From: an uncultured Candidatus Saccharibacteria bacterium
Lineage (GTDB): Bacteria > Patescibacteriota > Minisyncoccia > Phycocordibacterales > Phycocordibacteraceae
Assembly: GCA_964462415.1 (NCBI GenBank)
Contig: CAYWWP010000016.1
Location: 1 to 14,427, forward strand
Direction: 5' to 3'
DNA length: 14,427 nucleotides
Position 1 is the stretch's first letter, and each line of letters begins with the position of its first letter. The notes under the pieces are model-generated. The model saw nothing but the letters and a program-made list of their open reading frames with translations. It searched no databases and was not told the DNA's origin. A program made the translations under genes and the position numbers. Shown piece after piece: positions 1-13,193 of this stretch.

Positions 1-73
1 GTGCTCTCGGTAGGAATCGAACCTACATTACCAGCTCCGCAAGCTAGCGTCCTATCCATTGAACGACGAGAGC
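1..73 (-). tRNA. tRNA-Arg (anticodon GCG); 3' end touches the window edge
   Basis: The reverse complement folds as a cloverleaf. Acceptor is GCTCTCG/CGAGAGC and the D stem is GTTC/GGAC. The anticodon stem is CTAGC/GCTGG with loop TTGCGGA. The T arm is GTAGG-TTCGATT-CCTAC and the discriminator is A. The variable loop is 4 nt. Confidence 0.85.
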
Positions 74-234
74 CGAGTGAGGTGAAAAGCATGCGTGCGT
101 AGCACATATACTTTTCAACCGAGCGAGGCTCACGTACCCCTTTGCGAGCGCATGCGAGCAAATGGGGTACAAGAGCCATACGAACCGTTGGCTCGCTTTC
201 CGACTCTATCCTTAAAACGCCGTATTCGCAACCT

Positions 235-708
235 TTAGAGCTTGAATAGGCGCACCATAAAGTCCATGAGGGACTGCTCGTGACGCCCTTCCTCGATGTG
301 GGCCGCGAAGAAGGTATAGATATCAAGTGGGTCTGGGCCCTGAATAGGAATCAAGAGGTGGGGCGCCAGCAATCGCCGTGTCTTTATTGAAAGGGAAGGA
401 GGCATAGAAGGATCGGCGTACTCAAGTACCGAGAAGTGCAGCATATCCTCGTATGGGTGCAGTGCCTGATCTACCACGAGACCTTCGTCAGTAATCATGA
501 AATGGTGCGTACGGGGTGCACGTGCCGCAGTAAGAGCAAGTGCGCCTGCAGCAGCCACAATCAAGAGTGCGAGAATAAAATTTCCGAATATAACACTGGC
601 AATACTACCTGCAATCGCCACCACGCCAAGCGCCCAGTACCAGTCGGCACTCTTCTCTTCAAACGCATATTCCTGTGCATCCCACTCGAAGAACACGGTA
701 CTCGCCAT
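235..708 (-). CDS. Hypothetical membrane protein (two adjacent hydrophobic helices, then a soluble C-terminal domain)
   Basis: This is part of ORF 235..804. I prefer the internal ATG at 708 (MASTVFFEW...). An extended -10 (TGCTATCAT, 717-725 on the minus strand) lies 8 nt upstream of it. The longer N-terminus would also run through the tRNA-derived repeat at 781-793. WYWALGVVAIAGSIASVIFGNFILALLIVAAAGALAL is clearly transmembrane. I recognise no family. Confidence 0.6.
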   Translation of the reverse strand: MASTVFFEWDAQEYAFEEKSADWYWALGVVAIAGSIASVIFGNFILALLIVAAAGALALTAARAPRTHHFMITDEGLVVDQALHPYEDMLHFSVLEYADPSMPPSLSIKTRRLLAPHLLIPIQGPDPLDIYTFFAAHIEEGRHEQSLMDFMVRLFKL

Positions 709-716
709 ATGTGTTG

Positions 717-725
717 ATGATAGCA
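717..725 (-). promoter_or_regulatory. Extended -10 element (TGcTATCAT) for the 235..708 gene, probably a leaderless transcript
   Basis: The minus strand reads TGCTATCAT, followed by 8 nt and then ATG (708-706). No Shine-Dalgarno sequence lies between them. Confidence 0.35.
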
Positions 726-780
726 CTACGCTGTGGGGTGAGAGTGCGTAATGCACGAGGTGAGTGATTGAGAAGAAGTC

Positions 781-966
781 GGAGGTGGATTCGGTCGCGG
801 TCACTAATTCACTTCGTTCATAAGTGCCGCCGACCCCGGCTCCCGCTCCGCGGTCCGCCGTTCGAATCCCACATGCTCGGCTCCCAGCCGAGCGCTCCTC
901 CGCAAAATTAAAAGAGCTGGCGTGTTGCCAGCTCTTTTAATTTTGCGGAGGAGGTGGGATTCGAAC
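781..966. repeat. tRNA-Ser 3'-end mirror module: direct copy, GC-rich core, inverted copy and a 27-bp perfect palindrome reaching into the tRNA
   Basis: Positions 895-921 pair perfectly with 927-953 (27 bp, 5-nt loop), and 946-953 is the tRNA 3' end. Positions 860-872 are the exact reverse complement of 954-966 (tRNA T loop and T stem). These two pairings are separated by a 22-nt insert (873-894) that is itself a hairpin (875-882/886-893). Positions 781-793 are a third, direct-orientation copy; its reverse complement CGAATCCACCTCC matches the tRNA's CGAATCCCACCTCC with one C missing. The core 826-860 is about 89% GC by my count. Confidence 0.7.
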
Positions 967-1030
967 CCACGAGGCCTTGCGACCTGGCGGTTTTCAAGAC
1001 CGCTCGTTTCGACCACTCACGCACTCCTCC
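946..1030 (-). tRNA. tRNA-Ser (anticodon TGA), class II with long variable arm; no encoded CCA
   Basis: The reverse complement is GGAGGAG-TG-CGT-GAGTGGTCGAA-ACG-A-GCGGT-CTTGAAA-ACCGC-CAGGTCGCAAGGCCTC-GTGGG-TTCGAAT-CCCAC-CTCCTCC-G. All stems pair, and the length is 85 nt. Confidence 0.9.
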
Positions 1031-1083
1031 GTAACACAGGGGAGACTATAGCACGTCTTTCGCTTGGCGTGTAGGATGCGGAT

Positions 1084-1503
1084 ATGCGCTACCTCGGTAT
1101 TGATTACGGCACCAAAAAAGTGGGCCTAGCAGTTTCTGATGAGGCTGGCACCATGGGGTTTCCACACGGGGTGTTTCCTACCACGCCGCGTCTTATAGAT
1201 GATGTATTGGCACTGATTGCTCAAAAAGACGTGGGAGCGGTCGTTATTGGGGAATCACTTGATTTCAAGGGAAAGGAAAATCCTGTAGCTTACGAGGCTC
1301 GCGCATTTGGGACGCAACTTGAGCGGAGGATTGGTATTCCGGTCATGTATCAACCCGAGGTGTTGACCACCCAAGAAGCACGCAGGAACTTTGAAGGGGT
1401 GCGTGAGCCAGGAAGTGGAAACGTGGCCGTGGATGCACAAGCAGCAGCTCTTATACTTACCAGTTATTTAGACACACACGCACATGAGCGAAGAACGGAT
1501 TAG
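1084..1503 (+). CDS. ruvX: YqgF/RuvX-family putative pre-16S rRNA nuclease (Holliday junction resolvase-like)
   Basis: The N-terminus MRYLGIDYGTKKVGLAVSD is the RNase H-fold YqgF signature. Size is 139 aa. A -10-like TAGGAT (1072-1077) lies 6 nt before the ATG. Confidence 0.85.
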   Translation: MRYLGIDYGTKKVGLAVSDEAGTMGFPHGVFPTTPRLIDDVLALIAQKDVGAVVIGESLDFKGKENPVAYEARAFGTQLERRIGIPVMYQPEVLTTQEARRNFEGVREPGSGNVAVDAQAAALILTSYLDTHAHERRTD

Positions 1504-1825
1504 TATTGATGATTTTGCAAAGATAGAAGTGAAGGTAGGTACGGTGCTTGCTGCAGAGCGCGTCCCAGAGACAGACAAGCTTATTAAGTTCTCTATAGAC
1601 TTTGGAGAGGAGACAGGTCCGCGTCAGATTCTGTCAGGTATTCAAGCATATGTTCCAGAGCCCGAGGCACTGCTTGGACGACAGCTATCATTCGTGACAA
1701 ATCTTGCGCCACGCACCATCAAGGGACTTGAATCAAACGGCATGCTCTTTGCAGTGGGAGAAGGAGACTCGTTTGCATTTGTGGTGCCTGATAGACCAGT
1801 TCCGCCAGGCACGAGCGCGCACTAG
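1484..1825 (+). CDS. Stand-alone tRNA-binding domain protein (CsaA/Trbp111/MetRS C-terminal-domain-like OB fold)
   Basis: DFAKIEVKVGTVLAAERVPETDKLIKFSIDFGEE..RQILSGI...LLGRQLSFVTNLAPRTIKGLESNGMLFA matches the tRNA_bind OB-fold pattern. It overlaps ruvX by 20 nt. Confidence 0.8.
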   Translation: MSEERISIDDFAKIEVKVGTVLAAERVPETDKLIKFSIDFGEETGPRQILSGIQAYVPEPEALLGRQLSFVTNLAPRTIKGLESNGMLFAVGEGDSFAFVVPDRPVPPGTSAH

Positions 1826-1876
1826 TTTTACACGATATACCGCACACGTGAGACATGCGCGCGGTATACTGCGCGT

Positions 1877-2977
1877 ATGTCTGATGGTCTTCTCGCGCGT
1901 ATCGCACGCATAGAATTTGCACCACCGCGCTACCTCTCCATGCCAGCTGCGGGTGTAGATATTTCTGCAAGCGGTATTAAGATGGCGGTTTTAGGAGAAC
2001 GCCTCGGAGGACTAGAGTTGGTACGCTATGGAGAAGAACCACTGCCGTCTGGAGCAGTGTCCGGCGGAGAAATTATTGATCCTGCAGTGGTGGTGTCTGC
2101 GCTCAAATCGCTTGCCAAAAAACATCACGTTAAGTTTGTAAATATTGCACTCTCTGAATCACGTAGCTACCTCTTTGATGCGGTTCTTGAGAATGCCAAG
2201 CCAGAAAGCACAACAAAAGTATTGCGTACACTCACCGAGCCGCACCTTGAAGAGTACGTGCCACTACCTCCTGCTGATGTGGCGTTTGATGTCGCTCCTA
2301 TAGGACATACGGCGCAGGGTGTGCGCGTAATTGGGGTTGGGTACGCACGGCGCATTATTGAAGAATCTCTCGCAACAGTAGACGCATCAGGTCTTATTAC
2401 ACGTGCGATAGAGGGGGAAACGTTTTCTATGGCACGAGCACTCACCACCCGTAAAAACAGTGAGACGGTGCTGATCATCGATCTGGGCAAAACAACCACT
2501 AAACTTATGGTGGTTACGGGGCAGATACCGCGCTTCGCGACAACGCTCGACATTGGTGGTCAGGCACTTACCGATGCAGTGATGAAGCATTTTGGTGTTA
2601 CTGAGGAAGAAGCAAAGCATGTAAAAGCAGAGCGCGGACTAACTGGAGGAGCGGCAGGTGATGAGTATGTGGCGACTATGCTGCTCACTGTTTCTGCGGT
2701 TCGTGAGGAAATTATGCGGCGTCTTGAATATTGGCAGAGTCGAGCGGTAGAGGGTTCAGGTAATGAGCCGGTTACCCGAGTTATTTTGGCTGGAGGAAAT
2801 GCGACCGTACGAGGATTGCCAGAGTATCTTGAAACGGCACTCAAGCTCCCGGTCTCTTTAGGTGATGTGTTCACAAACCTTGCCTCTCGCGACCGCTGGT
2901 TGCCACCACTTGAATACACCGAATCCCTTGCGTACGGCACGGCAATTGGGCTCGCGCTACGCGATCACGACTACTAG
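1877..2977 (+). CDS. pilM: Type IV pilus assembly protein PilM (actin-like ATPase fold)
   Basis: The product is 366 aa with actin-like phosphate motifs (GVDISASGIKMAVL; VLIIDLGKTTTKLMVV; DIGGQALTDAV). It is followed directly by a PilN-like gene whose product starts MNLLP. Confidence 0.85.
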   Translation: MSDGLLARIARIEFAPPRYLSMPAAGVDISASGIKMAVLGERLGGLELVRYGEEPLPSGAVSGGEIIDPAVVVSALKSLAKKHHVKFVNIALSESRSYLFDAVLENAKPESTTKVLRTLTEPHLEEYVPLPPADVAFDVAPIGHTAQGVRVIGVGYARRIIEESLATVDASGLITRAIEGETFSMARALTTRKNSETVLIIDLGKTTTKLMVVTGQIPRFATTLDIGGQALTDAVMKHFGVTEEEAKHVKAERGLTGGAAGDEYVATMLLTVSAVREEIMRRLEYWQSRAVEGSGNEPVTRVILAGGNATVRGLPEYLETALKLPVSLGDVFTNLASRDRWLPPLEYTESLAYGTAIGLALRDHDY

Positions 2978-2978
2978 T

Positions 2979-3524
2979 ATGAATCTACTTCCAGACGCTA
3001 GAAAGAAAGTGCTCATGCATCTATATGCGTTACGACTTGGTGTCGTTGCTGCGTGGCTTCTTACAGGCGTGCTTATAGTCACCGTAGTACTCATGATTCC
3101 TGCGTACTTATATTTCCATCAAGCGGTACAAACGCGCGCAGCAGAACTTGCGGGCCTTGGTGAAGAGTTGGCCGGCTCAGAGGAGCAGCAAGTAAGTACT
3201 CGTGTAAAAACGCTTAATGACAATGCTGCGTACTTAACACAGGCAGCTTCACGTGTAAGCGCAAGTGGTGCAATTCGGGTAATTGCGAGCACGCCTCGCA
3301 ATAATATTCGCATTACCGGTATGTCCTTTTCAGCGGGTGCTGCAGGGAAGCCGTCAACCATGAATCTTAGTGGTGTTGCGACAACACGAGAAGCGCTCAG
3401 AACCTATGTCGCATCACTCAAGGCACTGCCATACATTACTACCGTCGATCTTCCCATAAGTGCATACGCAAAGGAAACAAACATTGAGTTCTCTGTTGCA
3501 CTCACGGGCACATTCACACCATGA
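2979..3524 (+). CDS. pilN: PilN-like pilus assembly protein (bitopic)
   Basis: I use the internal ATG at 2979, 1 nt after the pilM stop. The N-terminal MNLLPDARKK matches the conserved PilN INLLP motif. A single TM helix and a coiled-coil-like region follow. The upstream part of ORF 2862..3524 overlaps pilM and was discarded. Confidence 0.7.
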   Translation: MNLLPDARKKVLMHLYALRLGVVAAWLLTGVLIVTVVLMIPAYLYFHQAVQTRAAELAGLGEELAGSEEQQVSTRVKTLNDNAAYLTQAASRVSASGAIRVIASTPRNNIRITGMSFSAGAAGKPSTMNLSGVATTREALRTYVASLKALPYITTVDLPISAYAKETNIEFSVALTGTFTP

Positions 3525-4069
3525 CACGACCTTCGTACGTACAGCTTGCAATAGCACTAGTAATTGTTGCCGTGGCAGTGGGGTTGCTTACGGGAGGTGT
3601 TATTCTCACTAACCAAGAACGGGCGCACGCAGAGAGTCTCATCAGCGATATCGCCGCCAAGCGGCTCGAAGCAATGCGTGTGGCAGCCGCAAAGGAGGCG
3701 TTGCCAGCGCTTGCAGCAGATGAGGCAGCAATTACTCAATTCTTCGTCAAAGCAGACGACATCGTGCCGTTTCTAGAGAAATTGCAGACAATCGGCACCG
3801 TCCATGGTGCCAATGTAGAAGTGCTTTCCGTGGGTGCCGAGTCCGGTAAGGGCAATCATCGTATTTCAATCTCTCTTAAGATAACCGGGTCATTTGATGC
3901 GGTCATGCGCACACTCGGAACTATCGAGTATAGTCCGTTTGATATCGCGCTCACCAATGTGACCCTCGACTCAGAGAAGAACGCACTTAAAAATGGAGGA
4001 ACCGCCTGGACCGCAGCAGCAGTGTTTACTGTGGGAACACAACCTGGAGATTCCGCAGGTAAGAAATAG
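3521..4069 (+). CDS. PilO-like pilus assembly protein (N-terminal TM, helical segment, C-terminal alpha/beta domain)
   Basis: An ATGA overlap links it to pilN. Its topology, size (182 aa) and position after PilM/PilN fit PilO. The call rests on context rather than a recognised motif. Confidence 0.5.
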   Translation: MTRPSYVQLAIALVIVAVAVGLLTGGVILTNQERAHAESLISDIAAKRLEAMRVAAAKEALPALAADEAAITQFFVKADDIVPFLEKLQTIGTVHGANVEVLSVGAESGKGNHRISISLKITGSFDAVMRTLGTIEYSPFDIALTNVTLDSEKNALKNGGTAWTAAAVFTVGTQPGDSAGKK

Positions 4070-4074
4070 TCACC

Positions 4075-4377
4075 ATGAAAGGCATTTCATCACTCAAGCA
4101 CATACAGTTTGCACTTCCAGGAAATTCACACGTACACCCGGTGAGAGACTGGTTCCTGCTCCTTGGGTTTACGGCAGTGTTGCTTGGGGTCGCGGTTGGC
4201 TTTAGTGGTTGGAATTACGTGAGGGCATTGCGTGCTTCTGAACAGAATACTCCTGTCGGCGCTAAGCCTGTGTTCGACACTACAGCTGTAGAGGCGGTGC
4301 GAGCTGCATTCGATGCGCGCACGCAAGAGGCAGCACGGTATAGCTCCGAATATCGTTTCGTTGACCCAAGTCGCTAG
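4075..4377 (+). CDS. Small bitopic membrane protein, last gene of the pilMNO cluster
   Basis: This is a 100-aa ORF starting 6 nt after the pilO-like stop. It has one TM helix (WFLLLGFTAVLLGVAVGFSGW). I recognise no family. Confidence 0.45.
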   Translation: MKGISSLKHIQFALPGNSHVHPVRDWFLLLGFTAVLLGVAVGFSGWNYVRALRASEQNTPVGAKPVFDTTAVEAVRAAFDARTQEAARYSSEYRFVDPSR

Positions 4378-4395
4378 GGCGGCTACTGTACTAGA

Positions 4396-4467
4396 GCCCC
4401 CATAGCTCAATGGATAGAGCAGGAGACTTCTAAGCTCTTGATGTAGGTTCGATTCCTGCTGGGGGCA
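4396..4467 (+). tRNA. tRNA-Arg (anticodon TCT); no encoded CCA
   Basis: GCCCCCA-TA-GCTC-AATGGATA-GAGC-A-GGAGA-CTTCTAA-GCTCT-TGAT-GTAGG-TTCGATT-CCTGC-TGGGGGC-A. The 31-39 pair is an A/G mismatch and everything else pairs. The 3' end (GGCACA) forms a 6-bp hairpin with 4475-4480. Confidence 0.85.
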
Positions 4468-4470
4468 CAC

Positions 4471-5757
4471 TTATTGTGCCTTACACGCTGTGCGCACATC
4501 CTCAGGGAGCCCATCACATAGTTGTACTCGCTCGTGTGTATCTTTTTTGTAGAGGAATCCAGCGTAATAGAAAAGTTCTGTATAGCACGCACCACCAACA
4601 CCTCGGGTGGTGGCGTACACGCACACGTCGAGTGATTTTTGAATAAGCTTTTTGTCAGTCTCAATCATGCGAGAGGCCATGTGTGCGAAACAGGAACCCT
4701 GTAGTGGACCATCAAACCTAAGACACATCGCGGTAACCTTTTCCTGATTGAAATCAACTGATGCCATCAGCGAGTAGATCATCTTATTGAAGCAAGCGGC
4801 CTGCTCTTTGGGGTCAGTGCTGTATGCGCAGTACGCAAGCATCCCTTCTGGTGAGGCGATGGTTTTCGGATCTACGAGCCATGCTTCACGGAAACATCCG
4901 TTACGTGCCTCGCCACTGAACTGATTGCAGAAGTCTTTGTAGGAGGGAATCCATACGGTGCGCCAACACCGTGCTTTCTTGACGAGGTCTTGCTCGGGCT
5001 CACAAACAGCGAGTCCTTCCTTGTGAGGAATAAGCGGATATACCAACGTGAAATCATCTACCGAGAGTGGTTGGAATACTTGCATAAACACTCCTTCAGT
5101 ACAGGTTTGCAGGAAATTGCGACCATCTGTCTTCACTGCTGCACGTTCGCAAATACGATAGGCTTCCTGTGGATTTGCGCCCGCTACATACAGGGCTGCG
5201 TGACCTATCTCGTGATAGCAGCTTGATTGCTGTTGGTTTGTCGGATTCCAACCAGGACGCTGTTCACACACACTCGAAAGATCGGGAAGTATGTCGTCTA
5301 TCTGCGCATGATTGAGAGACTCGCTACTAAAGTGCGCTTGAAGTGCGCCGTGCAGACATCCGTTAGAGCATATGCCAATCGGACATTCTTTGATAATGTC
5401 GCGCCACTTACTGGGGTCCTTTGCGTACTCGTATTCACTTATGCCATGTCCAGCGATGTGACAAAATTCGTAACTTGGCTCCTCTTGCTGAATAAGACGA
5501 ATGACCTGAAACGCGTCTATGAGTGACACCCCATCACTCATAATTTTGGGAACCTCTCGGTCATAGCAGCGAAGGGCGCCGCCCTCAACGCGCGCACACT
5601 TCTTGATAATCCTCTGAGCGTACTCCTCTAGTGAAGGATGTGTTCGCGCTGTGAGTAGATAGCCAGCTGCAACCACTACCAAGCAAAAGATCAAGACAAG
5701 CCCGAGTCGCACTGAGCGTGCACGAAACACGCGGGAAAGTTTCTCAGGGAAACGCAT
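4471..5757 (-). CDS. Exported or membrane-anchored Cys-rich repeat protein, function unknown
   Basis: The ORF encodes 428 aa with an N-terminal anchor (LGLVLIFCLVVVAAGYLL). It has 22 Cys after the anchor, and the C-terminal half shows a 34-35-residue Cys periodicity. It is the only minus-strand gene here and sits between tRNA-Arg and tRNA-Leu. A -10-like CATACT (5766-5771, minus strand) lies 8 nt before the ATG. Confidence 0.75.
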   Translation of the reverse strand: MRFPEKLSRVFRARSVRLGLVLIFCLVVVAAGYLLTARTHPSLEEYAQRIIKKCARVEGGALRCYDREVPKIMSDGVSLIDAFQVIRLIQQEEPSYEFCHIAGHGISEYEYAKDPSKWRDIIKECPIGICSNGCLHGALQAHFSSESLNHAQIDDILPDLSSVCEQRPGWNPTNQQQSSCYHEIGHAALYVAGANPQEAYRICERAAVKTDGRNFLQTCTEGVFMQVFQPLSVDDFTLVYPLIPHKEGLAVCEPEQDLVKKARCWRTVWIPSYKDFCNQFSGEARNGCFREAWLVDPKTIASPEGMLAYCAYSTDPKEQAACFNKMIYSLMASVDFNQEKVTAMCLRFDGPLQGSCFAHMASRMIETDKKLIQKSLDVCVYATTRGVGGACYTELFYYAGFLYKKDTHERVQLCDGLPEDVRTACKAQ

Positions 5758-5844
5758 ACATAGAAAGTATGCCGTGAGACAGGGGACAGACCAAGTCTCT
5801 GTGCGAGAGCAGGTAAGACCGGTATACTGCTCTTGCCTCAGGAA

Positions 5845-5926
5845 GCCGTGGTGGCGGAATTGGTATACGCGTACGCCTCAGAAGCGTATGCCGCAAGGAT
5901 TGAGGGTTCAAATCCCTCCCACGGCA
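5845..5926 (+). tRNA. tRNA-Leu (anticodon CAG), class II; no encoded CCA
   Basis: GCCGTGG-TG-GCG-GAATTGGTATA-CGC-G-TACGC-CTCAGAA-GCGTA-TGCCGCAAGGATT-GAGGG-TTCAAAT-CCCTC-CCACGGC-A. Confidence 0.9.
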
Positions 5927-5938
5927 CACTGTATAAAC

Positions 5939-5978
5939 AGAGAACTCCCAGGCTTTCTGCCTGGGAGTTCTCTTATTT
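5939..5978. terminator. Bidirectional intrinsic terminator shared by the convergent tRNA-Leu(CAG) and tRNA-Val genes
   Basis: A perfect 15-bp stem AGAGAACTCCCAGGC / GCCTGGGAGTTCTCT has a 5-nt loop. It is followed by TATTT on the plus strand and GTTTAT on the minus strand. Confidence 0.75.
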
Positions 5979-5980
5979 AG

Positions 5981-6053
5981 TGCGCGATGAGGGACTCGAA
6001 CCCCCGACCATCCCGGTGTAAACGGGGTGCTCTACCAACTGAGCTAATCGCGC
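5981..6053 (-). tRNA. tRNA-Val (anticodon TAC); no encoded CCA
   Basis: The reverse complement is GCGCGAT-TA-GCTC-AGTTGGTA-GAGC-A-CCCCG-TTTACAC-CGGGA-TGGTC-GGGGG-TTCGAGT-CCCTC-ATCGCGC-A. Confidence 0.9.
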
Positions 6054-6074
6054 ATAGAGTCACAATACCGCGAG

Positions 6075-6111
6075 TTTCAAATTTTGAAAAGTAACCCCGG
6101 AACCCTATGCT
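6075..6111. promoter_or_regulatory. Palindrome TTTCAAA-T-TTTGAAA supplying back-to-back -35-like elements for tRNA-Val (minus) and acyP-uppS (plus)
   Basis: The plus strand reads TTGAAA (6084-6089), 16 nt, then TATGCT (6106-6111). The minus strand reads TTTTCA, 17 nt, then TATTGT, ending 8 nt before the tRNA-Val 5' end. These are sequence matches only. Confidence 0.3.
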
Positions 6112-6128
6112 TAGTTCACGGTTTATAT

Positions 6129-6410
6129 ATGCACGAGCGACTAGAGGCAACAGTTTCCGGGCGGGTTCAAATGGTAATGTATCGCGATTTTGCTATGCGC
6201 AAGGCGCGTGGACTTAAGCTTGTTGGGGAAGTGCAGAATCTATCAGATGGCACGGTGCGAGTAATTGCAGAGGGTCCGCGCGCACAGCTTGAGGCCTATG
6301 TAGCAAAACTCTGGAAGGGCTCAGTACTTGCGCGTGTAACGCATGTAGAAGTGGACTTCGTGCCAGCTAGCGGAGGATATACGAAATTCGACATAAACTA
6401 TGGAAACTAA
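6129..6410 (+). CDS. acyP: Acylphosphatase
   Basis: VSGRVQMVMYRDFAMRKARGLKLVGEVQNLSDGTVRVIAEGP fits the acylphosphatase pattern (V.G.VQGV.FR ... G.V.N..DG.V). I prefer the ATG at 6129 to the TTG at 6084. Product is 93 aa. Confidence 0.8.
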   Translation: MHERLEATVSGRVQMVMYRDFAMRKARGLKLVGEVQNLSDGTVRVIAEGPRAQLEAYVAKLWKGSVLARVTHVEVDFVPASGGYTKFDINYGN

Positions 6411-7080
6411 TCCATCCGCTATCGGGATTATTCTCGATGGCAACCGTCGCTGGGCTCGTGCACGCGGGCTACCAACTCTTGAAGGTCATCGTGCTGGTTT
6501 TGAGAAGACAAAGGATCTTGTTCGATGGGCTCGTGCACGCTCAATAGGTACGGTATACATATACGCCTTTTCAACAGAGAACTGGAACCGTTCTCCAGAG
6601 GAGGTTGGGTACTTGATGCGGCTTTTTGCAGAAGCATTCTCAACAGAACTTATAGATGATATTGCTGAGCACAACGGGCGCATCGTGTTTTTGGGAGACA
6701 GAACCCGGATTCCGGATGAATTACGAGCACTCATGCAGCGTGCTGAAGATCGCACGAAAGGCGGAACACAAGGTACGCTTGCGGTGTGTCTATCCTATGG
6801 GGGACGAAGTGAGATAGTTGCGGCAGCTGAGTCCTTGCGGGGAGGTGCAGAGCTGGTTACCGAAGCGCTGTTTGCAAACATGCTTTGGAGTGCCGGACTT
6901 CCTGATCCAGACCTCATCATTCGCACGGGGGGAGATATGCGTCTCTCAAACTTCCTCTTATGGCAGGCTGCATATGCGGAACTCTTTTTTATTCCTGAGA
7001 CGTGGCCAGATTTCTCCGAGGCACTACTCGATCAGGTGCTAGAGGAATACCGAGCGCGTGAGCGCCGGCGAGGGAAGTAG
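6400..7080 (+). CDS. uppS: Undecaprenyl-diphosphate synthase (cis-isoprenyl transferase)
   Basis: IGIILDGNRRWARARGL, YAFSTENWNRSPEEV and IRTGGDMRLSNFLLWQAAYAELFF are hallmark UppS motifs. It overlaps acyP by 11 nt. Confidence 0.9.
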   Translation: METNPSAIGIILDGNRRWARARGLPTLEGHRAGFEKTKDLVRWARARSIGTVYIYAFSTENWNRSPEEVGYLMRLFAEAFSTELIDDIAEHNGRIVFLGDRTRIPDELRALMQRAEDRTKGGTQGTLAVCLSYGGRSEIVAAAESLRGGAELVTEALFANMLWSAGLPDPDLIIRTGGDMRLSNFLLWQAAYAELFFIPETWPDFSEALLDQVLEEYRARERRRGK

Positions 7081-7092
7081 GTGTGCTAGGGT

Positions 7093-7836
7093 GTGGGCAT
7101 GGAACTCACCATTCTCTACGAAGATGACCAGATGGTCGCGGTGGCAAAACCCGCGGGGATTATGACGCATCCGGATGGGCACACTCTCGAGGAGACGGTG
7201 TCGGATTGGTTTGCCGCTCGATACCCCGCTTCAGCTGCGGTGGGGGAGACGCAGCGCCTGGTAAATGGAACGGAAATAGCGCGTCCGGGCGTGATGCATC
7301 GCTTGGATAAAGATACCTCTGGTGTATTGGTGCTCGCGAAGACACAGGATATGCATGCATTTTTGAAGCACGCATTTAAAGAACGCACCGCCCACAAGAC
7401 ATACCTCGCACTCGTCTACGGTGTTCCTAAAGAGCGCAGAGGGACCATAGAGTTTGCTATTGGTCGCTCACGAAAGGATTTTCGCCTGCGTTCAGCACAG
7501 CCACGCGCCAAGGGCACCATGCGTGAAGCGGTGACGAAATATGAGGTAATGAGCGATATCGGAACCCATGCGCTCTTGCGGGTGCGTCCGGAAACCGGTC
7601 GCACCCATCAGATTCGCGTGCATTTAAAGGCAATCCACCACCCTATTGTGTGTGACCCGCTCTATGCCCCGGGGCGCCCGTGTGACCTCGGGACGAGCCG
7701 CTTGGCGCTCCACGCACTCTCGCTTGATCTGCCGCTGCCAGACGGTAGTCGACGCCTCATTACCGCCCCAGCCCCAGATGACTTGATCTCGGCGCTCAAG
7801 CATTTCCCCGAATATGAGGCAGCCATTGCCTCATAA
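7093..7836 (+). CDS. RluA-family 23S rRNA/tRNA pseudouridine synthase (no N-terminal S4 domain)
   Basis: The catalytic motif [15 protein letters not shown] is present, together with [10 protein letters not shown]. The start is GTG at 7093 or ATG at 7099. Confidence 0.85.
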
Positions 7837-7864
7837 GAAACCGCATGGTACAGTGCTGACCACT

Positions 7865-8374
7865 ATGCAGAACGTTATTACTCCGGTCGCAACCAACGAG
7901 CGTGTCCAGCTCGGTATTCGCACGGGCGACACCGTACGCGTCCACCAGAAGGTGGTAGAAAAGGGCAAGACTCGTATTCAGATTTTCGAAGGTCTCGTTA
8001 TCGCGGTTAAGCATGGCACTGAGCCAGGCGCTACCTTTACCGTACGCGCTACCATGTCAGGTATCGGCGTAGAGAAGATTTTCCCACTCTACAGTCCAGT
8101 AATCGAGAAGATTGAGATCACTCGTCGCTCTAAGGTTCGCCGCGCGAAGCTTTACTTCATCCGTGAGAAGGTTGCTCGTGAGGTACGTCGCCAGCTCCGC
8201 AACATGCGTATGGTTAAGGTATCAACCGATGACTTCAAGGAGGAAGAGGCTCCGGTAATTGAGGAGGCTGTAGCAGAAGAGGCACCTGTCGTTGAGGCAG
8301 AAGCAGTAGAGACTGCAGCAGCTGAGACCGCCGAGGTAGCAGCAGAAGAGAAGAAGGACGAGGCAGCAGCCTAA
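7865..8374 (+). CDS. rplS: 50S ribosomal protein L19 with a ~50-aa Glu/Ala-rich C-terminal extension
   Basis: [30 protein letters not shown]...TFTVR...[18 protein letters not shown] is the L19 core. I prefer the ATG at 7865 (MQNVI). An extended -10 TGGTACAGT (7846-7854) lies upstream. Confidence 0.9.
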
Positions 8375-8399
8375 GTACTCGCTCTCAAAAGTTGTAAAA

Positions 8400-8437
8400 A
8401 ATGAATTGGCCCGCTATAGTAAGCGGGTCAACTCATT
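8400..8437 (+). terminator. Imperfect long hairpin after rplS (probable terminator)
   Basis: AATGAATTGGCCCGCT-ATAGTA-AGCGGGTCAACTCATT forms about 16 bp with one mismatch and one G-U pair. The T tract is weak (TTGTT). Confidence 0.45.
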
Positions 8438-8455
8438 GTTAGGGGTTGGTCACCT

Positions 8456-8537
8456 GCCCAGTTGGTGAAATTGGTATACACGCTACCTTGAGGTGGTAGT
8501 CCTTTCGGGGGTGGAGGTTCGAGTCCTCTCCTGGGCA
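8456..8537 (+). tRNA. tRNA-Leu (anticodon GAG), class II; no encoded CCA
   Basis: GCCCAGT-TG-GTG-AAATTGGTATA-CAC-G-CTACC-TTGAGGT-GGTAG-TCCTTTCGGGGGT-GGAGG-TTCGAGT-CCTCT-CCTGGGC-A. There is one T/C mismatch at the 7-66 pair. Confidence 0.85.
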
Positions 8538-8540
8538 CAC

Positions 8541-8584
8541 GAGAAAATAACACTGGCTGCAGTTGTGGCCAGTGTTATTTTCTT
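8541..8584 (+). terminator. 17-bp hairpin with T tract directly after tRNA-Leu(GAG)
   Basis: GAGAAAATAACACTGGC (8541-8557) pairs with GCCAGTGTTATTTTCTT (8568-8584). The loop is 10 nt. Confidence 0.6.
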
Positions 8585-8702
8585 GCCCAGGAGAGGACTC
8601 GAAAGTGAGCGCGGGTACCAGCGCAGCAGCGCTGGTCGCGCGAGGCGGCTCGCGACATATTCGAGTGACGACGAGAATATGTTGTGAGAGAGTCCTCTCC
8701 TC
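8585..8702 (+). other. Candidate structured RNA or tRNA-derived repeat module (inverted plus direct copies of the tRNA-Leu 3' end around a GC-rich multi-hairpin core)
   Basis: Positions 8585-8603 are the perfect reverse complement of the tRNA 3' end at 8518-8536. Positions 8690-8701 are a direct copy of 8521-8532 and form a 12-bp closing stem with 8589-8600. Inside lie hairpins at 8609-8641, 8641-8652 and 8657-8680. The stretch 8609-8656 is about 79% GC by my count. All ORFs here are implausible because they overlap the tRNA and the hairpins. Confidence 0.5.
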
Positions 8703-8756
8703 AATTCTTCCCATCATTTTCCCGAAGCCAGAAGTCGTGGTATAACCCATCTACAT

Positions 8757-8833
8757 GGCGGCCTTAGCTCAGTTGGTAGAGCATCGGTTTGTGGTACCGA
8801 CGGTCATGGGTTCGAGCCCCATAGGTCGCCCCA
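8757..8833 (+). tRNA. tRNA-His (anticodon GTG) with encoded G-1 and encoded CCA
   Basis: G(-1)-GCGGCCT-TA-GCTC-AGTTGGTA-GAGC-A-TCGGT-TTGTGGT-ACCGA-CGGTC-ATGGG-TTCGAGC-CCCAT-AGGTCGC-C-CCA. G-1 opposite C73 is the His identity feature. An extended -10 TGGTATAAC lies at 8738-8746. Confidence 0.9.
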
Positions 8834-8844
8834 AGTAATGAACT

Positions 8845-9255
8845 ATGAAGACCTTTTTTCAAGAGTTTAAGAAGTTCGCGCTCCGTGGCAATGCGGTAGA
8901 TCTAGCAGTGGGTGTGGTCATCGGAGCTGCATTTAATGCCGTAACGAACTCACTCGTAAATAACGTGCTTACACCACCGCTTTCGTTGCTGACGAAGGGT
9001 ATTAACTTTAGTGATCTTGCAGTAGGCATTCCAAACACTGATGCCGCAATTCAATACGGTTTGTTCATTCAGGCACTCATAAGCTTCATCATTACTGCGT
9101 TCGCGCTCTTCTTGCTCGTCCAAGGTATGAACAAGCTGGCTGCTGCAGCTAAGAAGGATCAGGAAGATGGCGTCATGCCACTTCCCGAGAAAACTCCAGA
9201 ACTTAAGGTGCTCGAGGAGATTCGCGACACGCTCGCAGGACGACAACCTGAATAA
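8845..9255 (+). CDS. mscL: Large-conductance mechanosensitive channel
   Basis: FKKFALRGNAVDLAVGVVIGAAFNAVTNSLVNNVLTPPL is the canonical MscL N-terminus and TM1. Product is 136 aa. Confidence 0.9.
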   Translation: MKTFFQEFKKFALRGNAVDLAVGVVIGAAFNAVTNSLVNNVLTPPLSLLTKGINFSDLAVGIPNTDAAIQYGLFIQALISFIITAFALFLLVQGMNKLAAAAKKDQEDGVMPLPEKTPELKVLEEIRDTLAGRQPE

Positions 9256-9259
9256 CCCG

Positions 9260-9284
9260 AAGCGCCCCGAGAGGGGCGTTTTGC
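9260..9284 (+). terminator. Intrinsic terminator after mscL
   Basis: AAGCGCCCC-GAGA-GGGGCGTTT is followed by TTG. The stem is GC-rich with a GNRA-type loop. Confidence 0.7.
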
Positions 9285-9298
9285 TATACTGCCGGCAT

Positions 9299-9979
9299 AT
9301 GAAGCAGCTACTCGCACTTGTCGTATTACTCGTAGTTCTTGGTGTTGCAGGATTTGCCTATCGCAACGCTCTTGAGCACCCATCTGCACCCGTCCCTCCT
9401 CAAGGTGGAACTGCAACTGCGTGTACGGCAGACGCGAAGCTCTGCCCGGATGGTTCCTCAGTAGGCCGCACCGGGCCTGAGTGTGCGTTTGCAGCTTGTG
9501 CTCTACCCAATGCTGAAGATGCCTCAATTGGGATTGGCTTTGTCATTCCTACAGGCTATGTCGCTAACGGAGAGGCGATTGGTGCAGACGAGACCCTTCG
9601 CGCGGTATTCGATAAGCCAGCAGCGGGATCGGTTCCGCACACCATAGTGATTCGTCGCTACTCTATTCCGGAAGGGAAGACAGGTGCGGATGTTGTGTTG
9701 ACTAATACTATGTTCGAGCCTTCAGGTAACACCCCTAAGTCACTCAAGGAATTTAAGCCCGTGGTTATAAATGGCAAAACGTACCAGACCGTGGTGCTCG
9801 AGCGCTTCGAGGGTGTGGTGCACAGTGCGTACTATCTTGTGCGTGAAAAGGATGTGCTGAAGTTTGAGATCTTGGAGAAAGACGTGAAGAACTGGACCGA
9901 TGCGAAGCTAAAGGTAGAAGACTTACCGGAGCACAAAGCACTACAGGCACTGCTCACCAGTCTCCAGTCTGCTAGCTAG
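9299..9979 (+). CDS. Membrane-anchored or secreted hypothetical protein with an N-proximal four-Cys module
   Basis: I use the internal ATG at 9299 (MKQLLALVVLLVVLGVAGFAY), because the upstream part of ORF 9167..9979 overlaps mscL and its terminator. The Cys module is C-x6-C-x12-C-x4-C (CTADAKLCPDGSSVGRTGPECAFAAC). A -10-like TATACT (9285-9290) lies 8 nt before the ATG. Confidence 0.65.
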   Translation: MKQLLALVVLLVVLGVAGFAYRNALEHPSAPVPPQGGTATACTADAKLCPDGSSVGRTGPECAFAACALPNAEDASIGIGFVIPTGYVANGEAIGADETLRAVFDKPAAGSVPHTIVIRRYSIPEGKTGADVVLTNTMFEPSGNTPKSLKEFKPVVINGKTYQTVVLERFEGVVHSAYYLVREKDVLKFEILEKDVKNWTDAKLKVEDLPEHKALQALLTSLQSAS

Positions 9980-10587
9980 CGTGCTTCGTGGGTGCGTAGC
10001 GCGGCTAGTGCACGCATAGCAAGGTGATCAAAGAGCGCAAGCGCGATTTCCTGGTCATGTGCGTACGTTTCTGTAATCTTTGTGCGCTGCGTGGTGACAT
10101 GTAGCTCAAATGCTTCGGCGGTCGTGTCATACCGTTCATTCACAATGCGCGTTAATTTCGGCATGATCTTATCGAGTGTCTTGATGTATCGAGCCTCGCG
10201 GTCTTCGAGCGACTCGTAAGCACGAATGGTGCGCGCAACCCAGGGAAGGTGCGTGAGTTCAGCCTCAATACGTAGGAGTGCTGCGTGCTCTCGCTCTTCT
10301 TTTAGGCGCAGAATATCTTCGGGTATACCTCCAAACGTGTTGGTGTCACCCGCATACGCTTCCACGAGGTCATGGATGAGTGCGTACTGTGCGACAGTCC
10401 CCACATTCAGGGTAGGGTCTAGTTCTGCTGCCACCGCACAGGCAATCAGTCCAAGCATTACGGTGTGGTCTGTATCTGATTCGGGGGTAGTTCCGTCTTC
10501 AAGAAACGTGACGCGGTCTACTTGTGCAAAACGGCTCGTGAGTCGGGCGAGCGAGATTACTGCGTCAGCGATGGGGTCCATACGCAC
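9976..10587 (-). CDS. HD-domain phosphohydrolase (YfbR-like 5'-nucleotidase family)
   Basis: The H...HD...D pattern is present (ESDTDHTVMLGLIA; ALIHDLVEAYAGD). The GTG start is preceded by AGGAG (10594-10598, minus strand) at 6-nt spacing. This is one of the few clear SD sites in the window. Confidence 0.8.
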   Translation of the reverse strand: MRMDPIADAVISLARLTSRFAQVDRVTFLEDGTTPESDTDHTVMLGLIACAVAAELDPTLNVGTVAQYALIHDLVEAYAGDTNTFGGIPEDILRLKEEREHAALLRIEAELTHLPWVARTIRAYESLEDREARYIKTLDKIMPKLTRIVNERYDTTAEAFELHVTTQRTKITETYAHDQEIALALFDHLAMRALAALRTHEAR

Positions 10588-10629
10588 ATGGTACTCCTAA
10601 TTTGAAACATGCATACCTGTCTATTTAGT

Positions 10630-10644
10630 TGCGAATCATTCGCA
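10630..10644. promoter_or_regulatory. Perfect 7-1-7 inverted repeat TGCGAAT-C-ATTCGCA, candidate Fur-family operator
   Basis: It lies in the 94-nt divergent region between the HD gene and the fur-family gene. The 7-1-7 layout and the central AATnATT core match Fur/Zur/PerR-type boxes. A degenerate second copy, cacGAATCATTactt, lies at 10691-10705. Confidence 0.5.
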
Positions 10645-10681
10645 TATACTCCAAACTATCCGAGTAGAGTAGAATACAGCT

Positions 10682-11086
10682 ATGACTGGGCACGAATCAT
10701 TACTTAAAAGTGTGGGATTGCGCGCAACGAAGCAGCGTATTGCTGTACTTACCGTGCTTGAGCGACAGAAAGGACCGGTGTCAGTAGAGGAGCTTACACG
10801 AGCAAGTAAACTTGCGTTCGATTTGGCCACCGCATACAGGACCCTGGATTCATTTGTTGCTGCTGGTATCGCACGCAAAATGGAGCTCGCGCAGGGTCGT
10901 GCACTCTATGAACGAGCAGGGGAACACCATCATCATGCTGTGTGTGTTGAGTGTGGCGCAATAGCGGATATTCAGGCTTGTTTGCCGCCAGGTATCGACA
11001 AGGAAGTACGTAAGGCGACTGGCTTCGCGTCCATTGCTTCACACACACTCGAGTTTTTTGGAACATGTGCGAAATGCGCGCGCTAA
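10682..11086 (+). CDS. Fur-family metalloregulator (Fur/Zur/PerR type)
   Basis: There is a winged-helix N-terminus (LRATKQRIAVLTVLERQKGPVSVEEL). It also has the HHHHAVCVECG motif and a C-terminal CAKC, giving a Cys4 structural site. Product is 134 aa. A -10-like TAGAAT (10670-10675) lies 6 nt before the ATG. Confidence 0.85.
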   Translation: MTGHESLLKSVGLRATKQRIAVLTVLERQKGPVSVEELTRASKLAFDLATAYRTLDSFVAAGIARKMELAQGRALYERAGEHHHHAVCVECGAIADIQACLPPGIDKEVRKATGFASIASHTLEFFGTCAKCAR

Positions 11087-11091
11087 ATACT

Positions 11092-12213
11092 ATGCGATTG
11101 CTATACGGAGCACTCATTGCCTGCCTCTTGGTAATTCCGCCTCTGGCGCACGCACAGATTCCGCCGCAAGACACAGAGACCATTGAACGCGCGGTAGTCA
11201 CGAGCGTTGATAAGGAAACCATAACCGCGACGCCAGGAACGGGGGTGCGTGCACAGCAGCAGGTACTTACGGTAGAGGTACTTACTGGGGGAGAGAAAGG
11301 GAAGGTCGTTACCTTCACTAATGACTTTACGCAGTTGCGTGCCGGCGAGCAGTTTTACCTGCGCCACCTCGTGCGTCACTCAGAAGGACAGGAATATTAC
11401 ACTGTTGCTGATCCGTACCGACTGCCGATGCTCGGGGTGCTGGCGACGCTCTTTGTACTGCTTACGGTCGCGATAGGAGGCAAACAGGGTGTTCGGGGTC
11501 TGGCGTCGTTGGTGGGCAGCATGGTGCTTATTGCATACGTGCTTTTGCCTGGGGTGGTAGCCGGCTATTCGCCCATACTGGTTTCAGTGGGGGTTGCCTC
11601 TCTCATCGTAGTGGTGGGCTCCTATATCACCCATGGGATAAACCGCACCACATCTACTGCAGTACTTGGCATGATTGCAACGGTGTTGATTACGGGACTC
11701 GGTGCAGGGCTTGCCGTGTCATTTGGACATTTCTCTGGCTACACCTCAGAGGATGTGACCTACGTGCATTACAAGTTCAACGGCGCCATAGACCTGGTTG
11801 GTCTCTTAATGGGCGGTATTCTCATTGGTCTTTTGGGAGTCCTCTACGACAGCGCCATAGGGCAGGCGGTTGCTGTGGAGGAGCTGATGCGCGCAGGCAG
11901 ACATCTCACAAAGACTGAGGTATTTTTGCGTGCCATGCGGCTTGGACGCGAACATATTGGCGCGCTCGTTAATACGCTCGCTATTGCATATGTGGGTGCC
12001 ACGCTTCCGTTACTTCTGCTGTTAAGTACTTCAGACAATCCGCTTCTGTATATCATCAATAGTGAAGGGCTAGCTTCAGAGTTGGTACGCATCTTTGTGG
12101 GTAGTATTGGGCTACTGCTTGCCGTTCCTGTCACTACCGTTATTGCGGTGCTCGTGCTCGGTACCTATGGCGTACCTGTAAGAAAATCTTCACACGCCCG
12201 TCATACCCATTGA
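11092..12213 (+). CDS. YibE/F-family integral membrane protein with an N-terminal signal peptide and extracytoplasmic domain
   Basis: I prefer the ATG at 11092 (MRLLYGALIACLLVIPPLAHA), 6 nt after the fur stop. Multiple TM segments and the stretch DLVGLLMGGILIGLLGVLYDSAIGQAVAVEEL...GREHIGALVNTLAIAYVGATLPLLLL resemble YibE/F proteins as I remember them. Confidence 0.75.
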   Translation: MRLLYGALIACLLVIPPLAHAQIPPQDTETIERAVVTSVDKETITATPGTGVRAQQQVLTVEVLTGGEKGKVVTFTNDFTQLRAGEQFYLRHLVRHSEGQEYYTVADPYRLPMLGVLATLFVLLTVAIGGKQGVRGLASLVGSMVLIAYVLLPGVVAGYSPILVSVGVASLIVVVGSYITHGINRTTSTAVLGMIATVLITGLGAGLAVSFGHFSGYTSEDVTYVHYKFNGAIDLVGLLMGGILIGLLGVLYDSAIGQAVAVEELMRAGRHLTKTEVFLRAMRLGREHIGALVNTLAIAYVGATLPLLLLLSTSDNPLLYIINSEGLASELVRIFVGSIGLLLAVPVTTVIAVLVLGTYGVPVRKSSHARHTH

Positions 12214-12227
12214 GTGAGTGATATGCT

Positions 12228-12256
12228 TACGGTGTACCACTACACCGTAGATTTTT
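12228..12256 (+). terminator. Intrinsic terminator after the YibE/F gene
   Basis: TACGGTGTA-CCAC-TACACCGTA forms a perfect 9-bp stem, followed by GATTTTT. Confidence 0.7.
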
Positions 12257-12276
12257 AGTAATTAACGTGTCTCACA

Positions 12277-13071: not shown

Positions 13072-13092
13072 TCTCTAGTTCATAGGTGCGGT

Positions 13093-13126
13093 CAGAAAAA
13101 ACGCCCCAAACAGGGGCGTTTTTCTG
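13093..13126. terminator. Strong intrinsic terminator after the SIMPL gene (A tract, stem, T tract; bidirectional type)
   Basis: CAGAAAAAACGCCCC-AAACA-GGGGCGTTTTTCTG. Confidence 0.8.
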
Positions 13127-13129
13127 TAA

Positions 13130-13157
13130 TTGACTGTTTCTGTATCTGCGGTATCAT
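13130..13157 (+). promoter_or_regulatory. Sigma-70-like promoter for secE-nusG
   Basis: It reads TTGACT (13130-13135), a 16-nt spacer, then TATCAT (13152-13157). Confidence 0.45.
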
Positions 13158-13171
13158 TACGGTTACATAAG

Positions 13172-13193
13172 AGCCCGCAGGGCTTTTTTATTT
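13172..13193 (+). terminator. Short terminator-like hairpin plus T tract inside the putative secE leader (possible attenuator, or a second tandem terminator)
   Basis: AGCCC-GCA-GGGCT is followed by TTTTTATTT. It starts about 10 nt after the predicted transcription start and ends 23 nt before the secE ATG. Confidence 0.45.

Follow-up and report, generated by a model that had tools for sequence, protein, structure and literature searches.

Why should the 3' end of a transfer RNA (tRNA) gene be found twice more in the DNA directly behind that gene, once inverted and once in direct orientation? Patescibacteria have tiny genomes and very little non-coding DNA, and the question is raised by a stretch of 14,427 nucleotides (nt) from an uncultured Candidatus Saccharibacteria bacterium (GenBank assembly GCA_964462415.1, contig CAYWWP010000016.1, positions 1 to 14,427; hereafter the window), in which the end of a tRNA-Ser(TGA) gene is mirrored and then repeated downstream. 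A first reading of the letters alone (the sequence-only reading) had described these elements and taken them for a module with a parallel behind tRNA-Leu(GAG). We found that the Ser segment belongs to a multi-copy family of non-coding elements that measure 110-170 nt, occur in Paceibacteria and other Patescibacteria and lie on the same strand as a host gene and directly behind its 3' end. In the sense of the host gene each copy runs in the order gene end (X), hairpin, X', structured-RNA core and direct copy of X, where X' is an inverted copy of the final 5-21 nt of the host gene and is often interrupted by another conserved hairpin (P2). The core forms a conserved structure read from the tRNA-sense strand. 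The explanation that we favour, with about an even chance of being right, is that of a non-autonomous, cassette-like RNA element that is expressed by read-through and has spread by recombination or template switching at the homologies that gene ends supply.

At the Ser locus X comprises the final 22 nt of the tRNA (945-966), from the T loop to the 3' end, and is mirrored downstream (coordinates of all parts are given in Table 1). The terminator-like hairpin immediately behind the tRNA has a lower stem made of an A-tract and a T-tract around a GC stem and is not called as a terminator by a simple terminator scan; it lies within a perfect 27-nt inverted repeat (895-921 and 927-953, with a 5-nt loop). 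The outer 9 nt of this repeat (945-953) correspond to the acceptor 3' strand plus the discriminator and one extra base, and their inverted copy, X'a, complements the final 9 nt of the tRNA and thereby prolongs the hairpin into it. The second part of the inverted copy, X'b, follows P2 and is followed by the core, where positions 826-860 have a G+C content of 88.6%. The direct copy begins in the T loop (CGAATCC-ACCTCC), has a 1-nt deletion, lacks the final 5 nt (TCCGC) and is capable of pairing with X'. With P3 truncated, the direct copy shortened and the palindrome still perfect, the Ser copy is a partly decayed member of the family.

All elements listed by the sequence-only reading lie where it had placed them, and shuffle controls put them far above chance. 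When the 164 nt downstream of tRNA-Ser were shuffled 20,000 times, an exact inverted copy of 13 nt or more from the last 30 nt of the tRNA appeared in 4 shuffles; for tRNA-Leu(GAG), no shuffle out of 20,000 gave the 20-nt inverted copy, and 6 gave the 12-nt direct copy. Taken alone, the direct copy at Ser is weak (its longest exact run of 8 nt was matched in 3% of shuffles) and is meaningful only because of its fixed position right behind the core.

The structure of the core carries the case for a family. The type A core is a three-way junction that carries the hairpins P3 and P4 as well as tandem G.A motifs and one conserved G.U. The internal loop of P3 is GGA/GA, and its apical loop is, for example, CAGCAG; a GG junction joins P3 to P4 (GGUCGCG...CGUGACC), which has an A/U-rich inner stem and the apex GA-GY-GACG-RC-GA. 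A covariance model of this core (R1), made only from copies of other genomes and the Leu copy, was run on the window with filters off and matched the Leu core (E value 8e-11) and the Ser core (860-788, minus strand; 33 bits, E 3.1e-5), with a next best score of 9.4 bits. The Ser and Leu(GAG) segments are thus two instances of one module, as had been proposed, and nothing else in the window matches. Copies outside the seed were recovered as well, including the Ser core of the window and a copy behind tRNA-Lys(TTT) on the same contig. Six tRNAs of the window have sequence downstream of them, and of these only Ser(TGA) and Leu(GAG) are followed by such copies of their ends.

By comparing paired cells in aligned cores with two kinds of control, we found that the proposed helices are strongly supported. 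The structure of the seed was written by hand for 14 cores and was not fitted to the model; 92% of its cells are paired, against 68% in column shuffles and 27-44% with slid partners, and 23 of 29 pairs show compensatory changes. Among 126 distinct metagenomic cores the paired fraction was 94.4% (71% in shuffles) and compensatory changes were found at 26 of the 29 pairs; this alignment was fitted to R1 and is hence biased toward it, and the unfitted seed result agrees. Other copies carry in the same position a type B core, which covaries too (20 of 33 pairs compensatory in 7 sequences), and in a minimal form, A', X' is reduced to 5 nt and X to 3-4 nt, yet each remains specific for its host tRNA. 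The covariation bears out the earlier claim that the Ser segment is an RNA or repeat module and non-coding. G.U and U.G pairs together number 240 in the metagenomic cores, against 23 for A.C and C.A; one G.U is shared by 113 of 125 core sequences, and at another position some cores have G-C and others G.U. This excess of G.U indicates that the structure is read from the host-gene strand, most simply as RNA. Hammerhead, hepatitis delta virus-like and kink-turn readings of the junctions were compared by eye, and the conserved nucleotides do not fit them.

Homologues of the neighbouring protein lead to the same view of the Ser segment. The sequence-only reading had held that the open reading frame (ORF) 235..804, which runs into the module, really starts at 708. 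Among the best 120 of 326 homologues with E <= 0.001, nearly all are 157 amino acids (aa) long and all match solely residues downstream of the 708 ATG; M1 is invariant in a 26-sequence alignment of the 157-aa protein, and in four public contigs whose DNA is identical the automated gene calls begin at the same ATG. The few N-terminal extensions among these homologues are read-through of the upstream tRNA gene (...GSNPTSSA...), and conservation of the N-terminal 32 residues, named beforehand as the mark of a coding region, was not seen in the homologues. Homologue lengths and alignment therefore rule out a coding status of 709-804. The homologues are annotated as Candidatus Paceibacterota, Parcubacteria or Kaiserbacteria, and the window is of Paceibacteria (Patescibacteria/CPR) origin. 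ORF 804..1016, which had been called spurious, overlies the tRNA gene and the module, and its position suggests that the earlier judgement was right.

Table 1 Features of the Ser and Leu copies in the window and the neighbouring protein gene
Feature	Position (window)	Strand	Basis or detail
tRNA-Ser(TGA), host gene	945/946-1030	minus	ARAGORN; Rfam tRNA 56.5 bits
Terminator-like hairpin, immediately 3' of tRNA-Ser	904-944	minus	arms 927-944 and 904-921, loop 922-926
X'a, inverted copy of acceptor 3' strand, discriminator and one extra base (GCGGAGGAG)	895-903	minus	
P2, conserved hairpin splitting X'	873-894	minus	8-bp stem, loop GGG, apex GGCUGGGAGCC
X'b, exact 13-nt inverted copy of T-stem 3' strand and T loop (GTGGGATTCGAAC)	860-872, versus 954-966	minus	
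Type A structured-RNA core, Ser copy	788-860	minus	covariance model R1
Ser core sub-parts	837-860 (short P3); 793-835 (P4)	minus	GG junction; P4 with AT-rich inner stem
Hairpin CACTT-CGTTCAT-AAGTG	810-826		
X, direct copy of tRNA end (CGAATCCACCTCC)	781-793, versus CGAATCCCACCTCC in tRNA (945-958)	minus	
157-aa membrane protein gene, true extent	235-708	minus	homologue lengths, alignment
tRNA-Leu(GAG), host of second window copy	8456-8538	plus	ARAGORN; Rfam
Leu copy hairpin and unsplit 20-nt X'	8543-8603	plus	hairpin arms 8543-8557 and 8568-8582; X' 8584-8603
Leu type A core	8604-8694	plus	R1 61.8 bits, E 8e-11; P3 loop CAGCAG, P4 apex GAGUGACGACGA
Leu direct copy X, 12 nt	8690-8701, versus 8521-8532	plus	

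The abundance and the hosts of the family were estimated as well. A 22-base core pattern occurs at no fewer than 120 loci of a metagenome collection, and R1 detected 132 cores in 100 of these loci, up to four of them within 13 kb. In total there are more than 250 family copies, at least three of which lie in 20 kb on the contig of the window; the third of these (L001 1832-1920, minus strand), behind tRNA-Lys(TTT) at 2025-2098, has an A'-like core that R1 scores at 18.8 bits, and its 5' part is masked by an N run. A same-strand tRNA lies at most about 250 nt upstream of 79 of the 125 pattern matches, and an opposite-strand tRNA is found upstream in only 2. Roughly 33 anticodons and 18 amino acids are represented among the host tRNAs. 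Several of the remaining matches sit behind the 3' ends of genes resembling transfer-messenger RNA (tmRNA), and there X' and X copy those ends. Five further copies lie behind rpsI (ribosomal protein S9, Pfam-confirmed), where the segment past the hairpin complements the last codons and the stop and the segment past the core repeats them. The hosts thus comprise all tRNA types, tmRNA-like ends and rpsI, and the rpsI copies indicate that X' and X are not tRNA mimicry as such and instead reflect the seat of the element behind any host gene end. Thirteen pattern matches in viral contigs, considered as a hint of phage origin, were all attributable to chance, with no model match and no tRNA nearby.

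Within each copy X' and X always match the local host gene and follow tRNA variants in the T stem (CCCAC, CTCAC or CTCGC) and in the acceptor (CTCCTCC or CCCCTCC). X' reaches at least 12 matches to the tRNA in 41 of 78 tRNA-linked copies. The pairing of X' with the host gene end is thus the persistent part, and it would be either selected or continually repaired from the other arm of the palindrome.

Comparison with relatives shows how patchy the family is. The gene order tRNA-Ser(TGA), 157-aa gene, tRNA-Arg(GCG), tRNA-Arg(CCG) is kept in 80 species representatives, in most of which tRNA-Ser and the 157-aa gene are 25-70 nt apart. Mirrored segments of the kind seen in the window exist at orthologous tRNA-Ser loci: in about 9 of 70 related species the spacer is longer, and the end of the respective tRNA reappears there inverted at +48 to +68 and often also in direct orientation at +150 to +185. 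The same architecture is found behind tRNA-Arg(GCG) and tRNA-Arg(CCG) in many related genomes. In L219, whose 157-aa protein is 75% identical, there is no module at Ser, Leu(GAG) or Lys; each tRNA is followed by a hairpin, similar to that of the window in its A-rich arms only, and then by the shared flank. No filled and empty sites closely related enough to form pairs were found among the species representatives.

The closest relative, L218 (87% protein identity), and L007 have the 52-nt X'a-P2-X'b segment of the window nearly base for base. The sequence-only reading had taken the 22-nt hairpin in this segment for an insert that might vary as an indel; it belongs instead to the conserved makeup of the element (P2, loop CUGGGAG), occurs in the nearest relatives, among them L218 and L007, and the CUGGGAG motif recurs in copies behind tRNA-Arg. 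Past this segment both relatives carry a type B core where the window has type A, and identity picks up again at GAYCGAA...CCTCC; the core has thus changed places with another between two TCGAA motifs derived from the T loop.

Single contigs may also carry several copies. Tandem units occur in L211 (179 nt), L150 and L152, and near-identical cores occupy two sites of one contig in L146, where the identity includes an inner helix derived from tRNA-Gln and excludes P2. Two of these stretches are dense mosaics: in L211 (minus strand, 960-1380) the two identical 179-nt units follow a gene resembling tRNA-Asp, whose T loop (GTCAGCA) is unusual, and in L154 (1-500) a type A, a type B and a partial third copy lie in a row, nested or adjacent, behind one tRNA-Leu. 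In L107 an ordinary gene is flanked by a duplicated unit of 197 nt, which is uninformative on boundaries. The motif AGTAT(C/A)GG...GACCCGAGTAC(C/T)TAG, which is found just behind tRNA-Ser or the module in L028, L032, L033 and L079 and in L107 (3290-3330 and 4130-4170), is an element different from this family.

Folding suggests what such a segment could do once it is transcribed. The read-through transcripts are predicted to fold much more stably than shuffles, with z-scores of -10.3 (Ser) and -11.9 (Leu). Folded alone, the module is predicted to form P1 (X' paired with X), P2 and the core; with the tRNA included, the predicted lowest-energy fold is a single long X-hairpin-X' stem in which the T arm and the acceptor stem are unfolded. 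X' would thus have two mutually exclusive partners. A consensus scan found no sigma-70-like promoter in or beside the module, which makes read-through from the tRNA the simplest source of a transcript, with the proviso that consensus scans for promoters and terminators are uninformative here.

In the explanation we favour, an element without a promoter or gene of its own would be transcribed by read-through from a strongly expressed host gene. Its RNA could take two states: in one, X' would pair with the 3' end of the tRNA in one long hairpin that unfolds the T arm and the acceptor stem; in the other, X' would pair with the downstream X, and the closing helix P1 would frame the core. Spread would proceed by recombination or template switching at short homologies supplied by the gene end, which for tRNAs include the palindromic T-loop TTCGAA, and templated repair within the hairpin would keep the X/X' palindrome perfect.

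The limits of the element can be drawn in two ways, as it may be written as hairpin-X'-core-X placed at a gene end or as X-hairpin-X'-core placed before X. A hairpin borne by the element is favoured by the apex motifs GCC-CUGC-GGC and CAACUGCUUG, which are conserved across different host genes, and by the sequence behind the direct copy, where CCA and a terminator similar to the one at empty sites are often found (L009 versus L076; L036). Insertion behind a native hairpin is favoured by the hairpin that L007 (filled) and L008 (empty) have in common. In L009, L057 (tRNA-Arg CCG), L036 and L107, CCA follows the far direct copy and is missing after the functional tRNA gene copy, so the far copy may be the original gene end or may be derived from a mature tRNA.

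Several points weigh against a read-through-expressed, mobile cassette. Read-through expression of the module is assumed, and we infer mobility from distribution only. No intermediate, enzyme or fixed target-site duplication was found, and the repetition of X makes the boundaries of the element ambiguous. The direct copy of X is often short or lost, with at least 12 matches in just 15 of the 78 tRNA-linked copies, and given this frequent loss the closing helix P1 may be dispensable. A match of X' and X to unrelated hosts such as rpsI cannot be brought about by point mutation of a guide. G.T pairing is also possible in single-stranded DNA (ssDNA), which leaves room for a structure formed there. 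The A' copies behind tRNA-Arg(GCG) (L053, L057, L058, L062, L068 and L050) represent one locus that is kept across species with compensatory changes, and this fits host function as well as it fits a selfish element.

A host-serving cis element on highly expressed genes, not mobile at all, is accordingly the main rival, unlikely in our judgement and yet a serious contender. It could take two forms. The X-hairpin-X' duplex might catch read-through as long double-stranded RNA, a possible substrate of RNase III or a fail-safe insulator; or the core might be a small RNA that uses the tRNA promoter and is freed by tRNA-processing enzymes, with X' and X mimicking the acceptor/T-stem helix. Besides the conserved tRNA-Arg(GCG) copies, this explanation draws on the hosts, all of which are highly expressed (tRNAs, tmRNA-like genes, rpsI), on the better preservation of the complementarity between X and X' than of that between X' and the downstream X, on the long duplex as the lowest-energy fold of the read-through RNA, on the 3' strand of P1, which is identical to that of the tRNA minihelix, and on the lack of a promoter of its own. 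The plant dicistronic tRNA-small nucleolar RNA (snoRNA) transcripts cited in PMC12045711 (refs 66, 67) are a precedent. In dicistronic genes of this kind, to which the herpesvirus tRNA-microRNA also belongs, a promoterless structured RNA stands right downstream of a same-strand tRNA and is expressed by way of the tRNA transcript; unlike the family, such RNAs lack copies of the tRNA end, do not form multi-copy cassettes and come from eukaryotes or viruses. The distribution, however, is patchy, and close relatives do without the module at the same sites; two unrelated-looking cores occupy the same frame; tandem, nested and decayed copies occur, that of the window among them; the rpsI copies cannot mimic a tRNA helix; and the A' form has just 3-5 nt of X' and X.

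X' and X match even host genes that are unrelated to one another. Such matching could conceivably arise by copying from the target at insertion, through fold-back synthesis at the hairpin and template switching, or by guide-directed targeting. A bolder proposal builds on the second of these, namely a new class of target-matched mobile RNA cassettes in which X' and X would be guides reading both strands of the target, the core, as a ribozyme or as the partner of an enzyme acting in trans, would direct copying or insertion behind gene ends, and the guides would be rewritten for each target; we regard it as speculative and rather improbable. Known RNAs of a comparable kind are the IS110 bridge RNA and the tigRNA of TIGR systems, each of which is one RNA with segments matching the top and bottom strands of a target. 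The guides of those RNAs, in contrast, measure 4-9 nt, address adjacent target halves and lie in scaffold loops beside a recombinase or Tas gene, whereas X' and X of the family cover the same segment and pair together as a closing helix, not as loops. There is no adjacent ORF at the window copy that could be a DEDD recombinase or a Nop-domain Tas gene. TIGR systems do occur in Patescibacteria (PMC12045711), and TIGR-Tas was considered as a match and found not to be the same thing.

A remnant of a hairpin-guided ssDNA transposon, such as a derivative of IS200/IS605 or an element like REP or REPIN moved by a Y1 HUH transposase encoded elsewhere, is a further possibility, which we judge improbable. 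The stems would then be ssDNA hairpins bound by the enzyme, and X' a guide pairing with a cleavage or target segment X at the foot of the hairpin. The family does resemble the REP, BIME and REPIN sequences of RAYT proteins and other IS200/IS605-derived palindromes in being small, non-coding, multi-copy, strand-specific and extragenic behind genes; IS200/IS605 elements likewise have a short guide beside a hairpin that pairs with the flanking target. The apex motifs conserved across hosts agree with this idea, as does the occurrence of the same X at the left flank and at the right end, which is expected if one guide sets both cleavage sites. In the family, however, the segments matching the flank are host-specific and range from 3 to 21 nt and more, against the fixed 4-5 nt of known guides, and the tandem G.A motifs and the three-way junction with its frequent G.U are typical of RNA; pairs of the G.U/G.T kind are ten times commoner than A.C, and one is nearly invariant. 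No Y1 transposase or RAYT was found within 2.5 kb of 120 copies or on the 20-kb contig.

Other mobility genes are equally scarce around the family. Among 933 clustered ORFs within 2.5 kb of the 120 copies, no neighbour recurs in more than 8 loci; the most recurrent ones encode housekeeping proteins (MiaA-like, RbfA, LepA, S9, S20), and GIY-YIG, LAGLIDADG and UPF0102 proteins are scattered. No integrase or recombinase recurs near these copies, and none lies within the bounded Ser and Leu segments. Larger, autonomous versions were looked for as direct repeats of the tRNA end more than 300 nt downstream, and none was found in 80 loci. The hallmarks of a miniature inverted-repeat transposable element are absent too, the inverted ends X' and X being copies of the host gene and different from site to site; the length of the repeat ranges among family copies between 3 nt and more than 60 nt, and there is no fixed target-site duplication.

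These searches also bear on the idea that the segment is the scar of an integrase-driven integrative element, with the direct copy as the displaced original tRNA end (attR) and the rest as remains of a deleted island. As at Ser and Leu, an insert downstream of an intact tRNA is bounded in attachment-site (att) scars by a repeat of the tRNA 3' end, which starts in the T loop or T stem and extends as far as the discriminator or CCA; the CCA and the empty-site-like terminator behind the direct copy at several loci would suit this origin, and a serine-recombinase element is present at the neighbouring tRNA-Arg(GCG). We nonetheless consider it very unlikely, since the bounded segment measures just about 150 nt and holds neither an ORF nor an integrase gene, distant direct repeats are lacking in 80 loci, the interior is a conserved, covarying RNA common to copies behind more than 30 host genes, among them rpsI, and an inverted copy is foreign to the logic of att sites. 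The element at tRNA-Arg is an insert of about 3.5 kb between tRNA-Arg(GCG) and tRNA-Arg(CCG) (L001 5404-8964, just left of window position 1; window 1-73), which are only 20-60 nt apart in most relatives. It encodes a 519-aa large serine recombinase, a helix-turn-helix protein, a 101-aa ORF and a pilin-like N_methyl protein; the 3' end of the recombinase gene overlaps the 3' end of the tRNA-Arg, a similar junction is found in L050, and the insert looks like an integrated element.

That the segment is merely a long terminator palindrome, grown by templated extension and without further meaning, is scarcely credible, because P2, the conserved core, the direct copy and the model matches would be left unexplained and both the core covariation and the family membership contradict it, even though native tRNA terminators of relatives that lack a module, with nothing behind them, often reach 3-5 nt into the tRNA end (L013, L077, L018), which fits a general tendency of such palindromes to grow. 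In the window itself, the convergent tRNA-Leu(CAG) (plus strand) and tRNA-Val(TAC) (minus strand) at 5845-6053 use one common hairpin, whose palindrome is lengthened by their GCAC ends, and inverted copies of tRNA ends can hence arise without the module.

Two further systems share single features with the family. Bacterial class C group II introns, mobile elements made of structured RNA, insert in sense orientation just behind intrinsic-terminator hairpins, and the elements of the window sit behind a terminator-like hairpin as these introns do. The introns, however, measure at least 600 nt, have domains I-VI and usually a reverse transcriptase, while the core of the family has about 90 nt and two hairpins and is not matched by any Rfam intron model. 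In the primer-binding sites of retroviruses and of other long terminal repeat (LTR) elements, and in the tRNA-linked integration of Neurospora retroplasmids, 18-21 nt are complementary to the 3' end of a tRNA into its T loop, and the junction falls exactly at that 3' end; complementarity to the tRNA 3' end extends over 22 nt (split) in the Ser copy and 20 nt in the Leu copy. In the family, in contrast, the complement lies in cis beside the gene of the tRNA itself and exists for a protein gene as well, and the same logic of X' and X at rpsI argues against a role of the tRNA as primer. Neither a reverse transcriptase near the copies or on the contig nor an LTR was found.

In a search of Rfam 15, whose families include group II introns, hammerhead, HDV-like, twister, pistol and hatchet RNAs, tmRNA and Y RNA, only the tRNA passes the gathering threshold, and at E <= 10 the window copy and the best type A' and type B copies gave only chance matches of the hairpin type. 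Full-text literature searches returned no description of such elements, and the family appears to be undescribed. The known systems compared here each resemble it in part only, and for att scars, class C group II introns and the dual-strand guide RNAs a defining feature was looked for and not found. To our knowledge, no described transposon, intron or integrative element carries an inverted and a direct copy of the end of each new host gene.

One more structured segment of the window may be related to the modules. The spacer between the 157-aa gene and tRNA-Arg(GCG) (74-234, minus strand) is strongly structured (z -4.7) and holds a hairpin whose 5' arm resembles the 5' end of tRNA-Arg; hairpins of the form GCTCTCGTA...TACGAGAGC stand upstream of tRNA-Arg genes in the relatives L218, L053 and L073. 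The structure in this spacer may be a counterpart, on the 5' side, of the modules found behind tRNA genes.

For annotation, the practical outcome is that gene starts are corrected and spurious ORFs removed beside tRNA genes in such genomes. The family itself is large, and its secondary structure is well supported, with conserved G.A and G.U features. Above all, despite their tiny genomes Patescibacteria maintain a structured RNA of 110-170 nt in many copies behind tRNA genes. If the copies are mobile, they have a way of settling behind gene ends in which each copy carries an inverted and a direct copy of the end of its host; if they serve the host, they would add a hitherto unknown layer to the handling of tRNA transcripts in a major radiation of bacteria; and should the proposal of rewritable guides prove true, Patescibacteria would possess a native, protein-poor and programmable insertion system.

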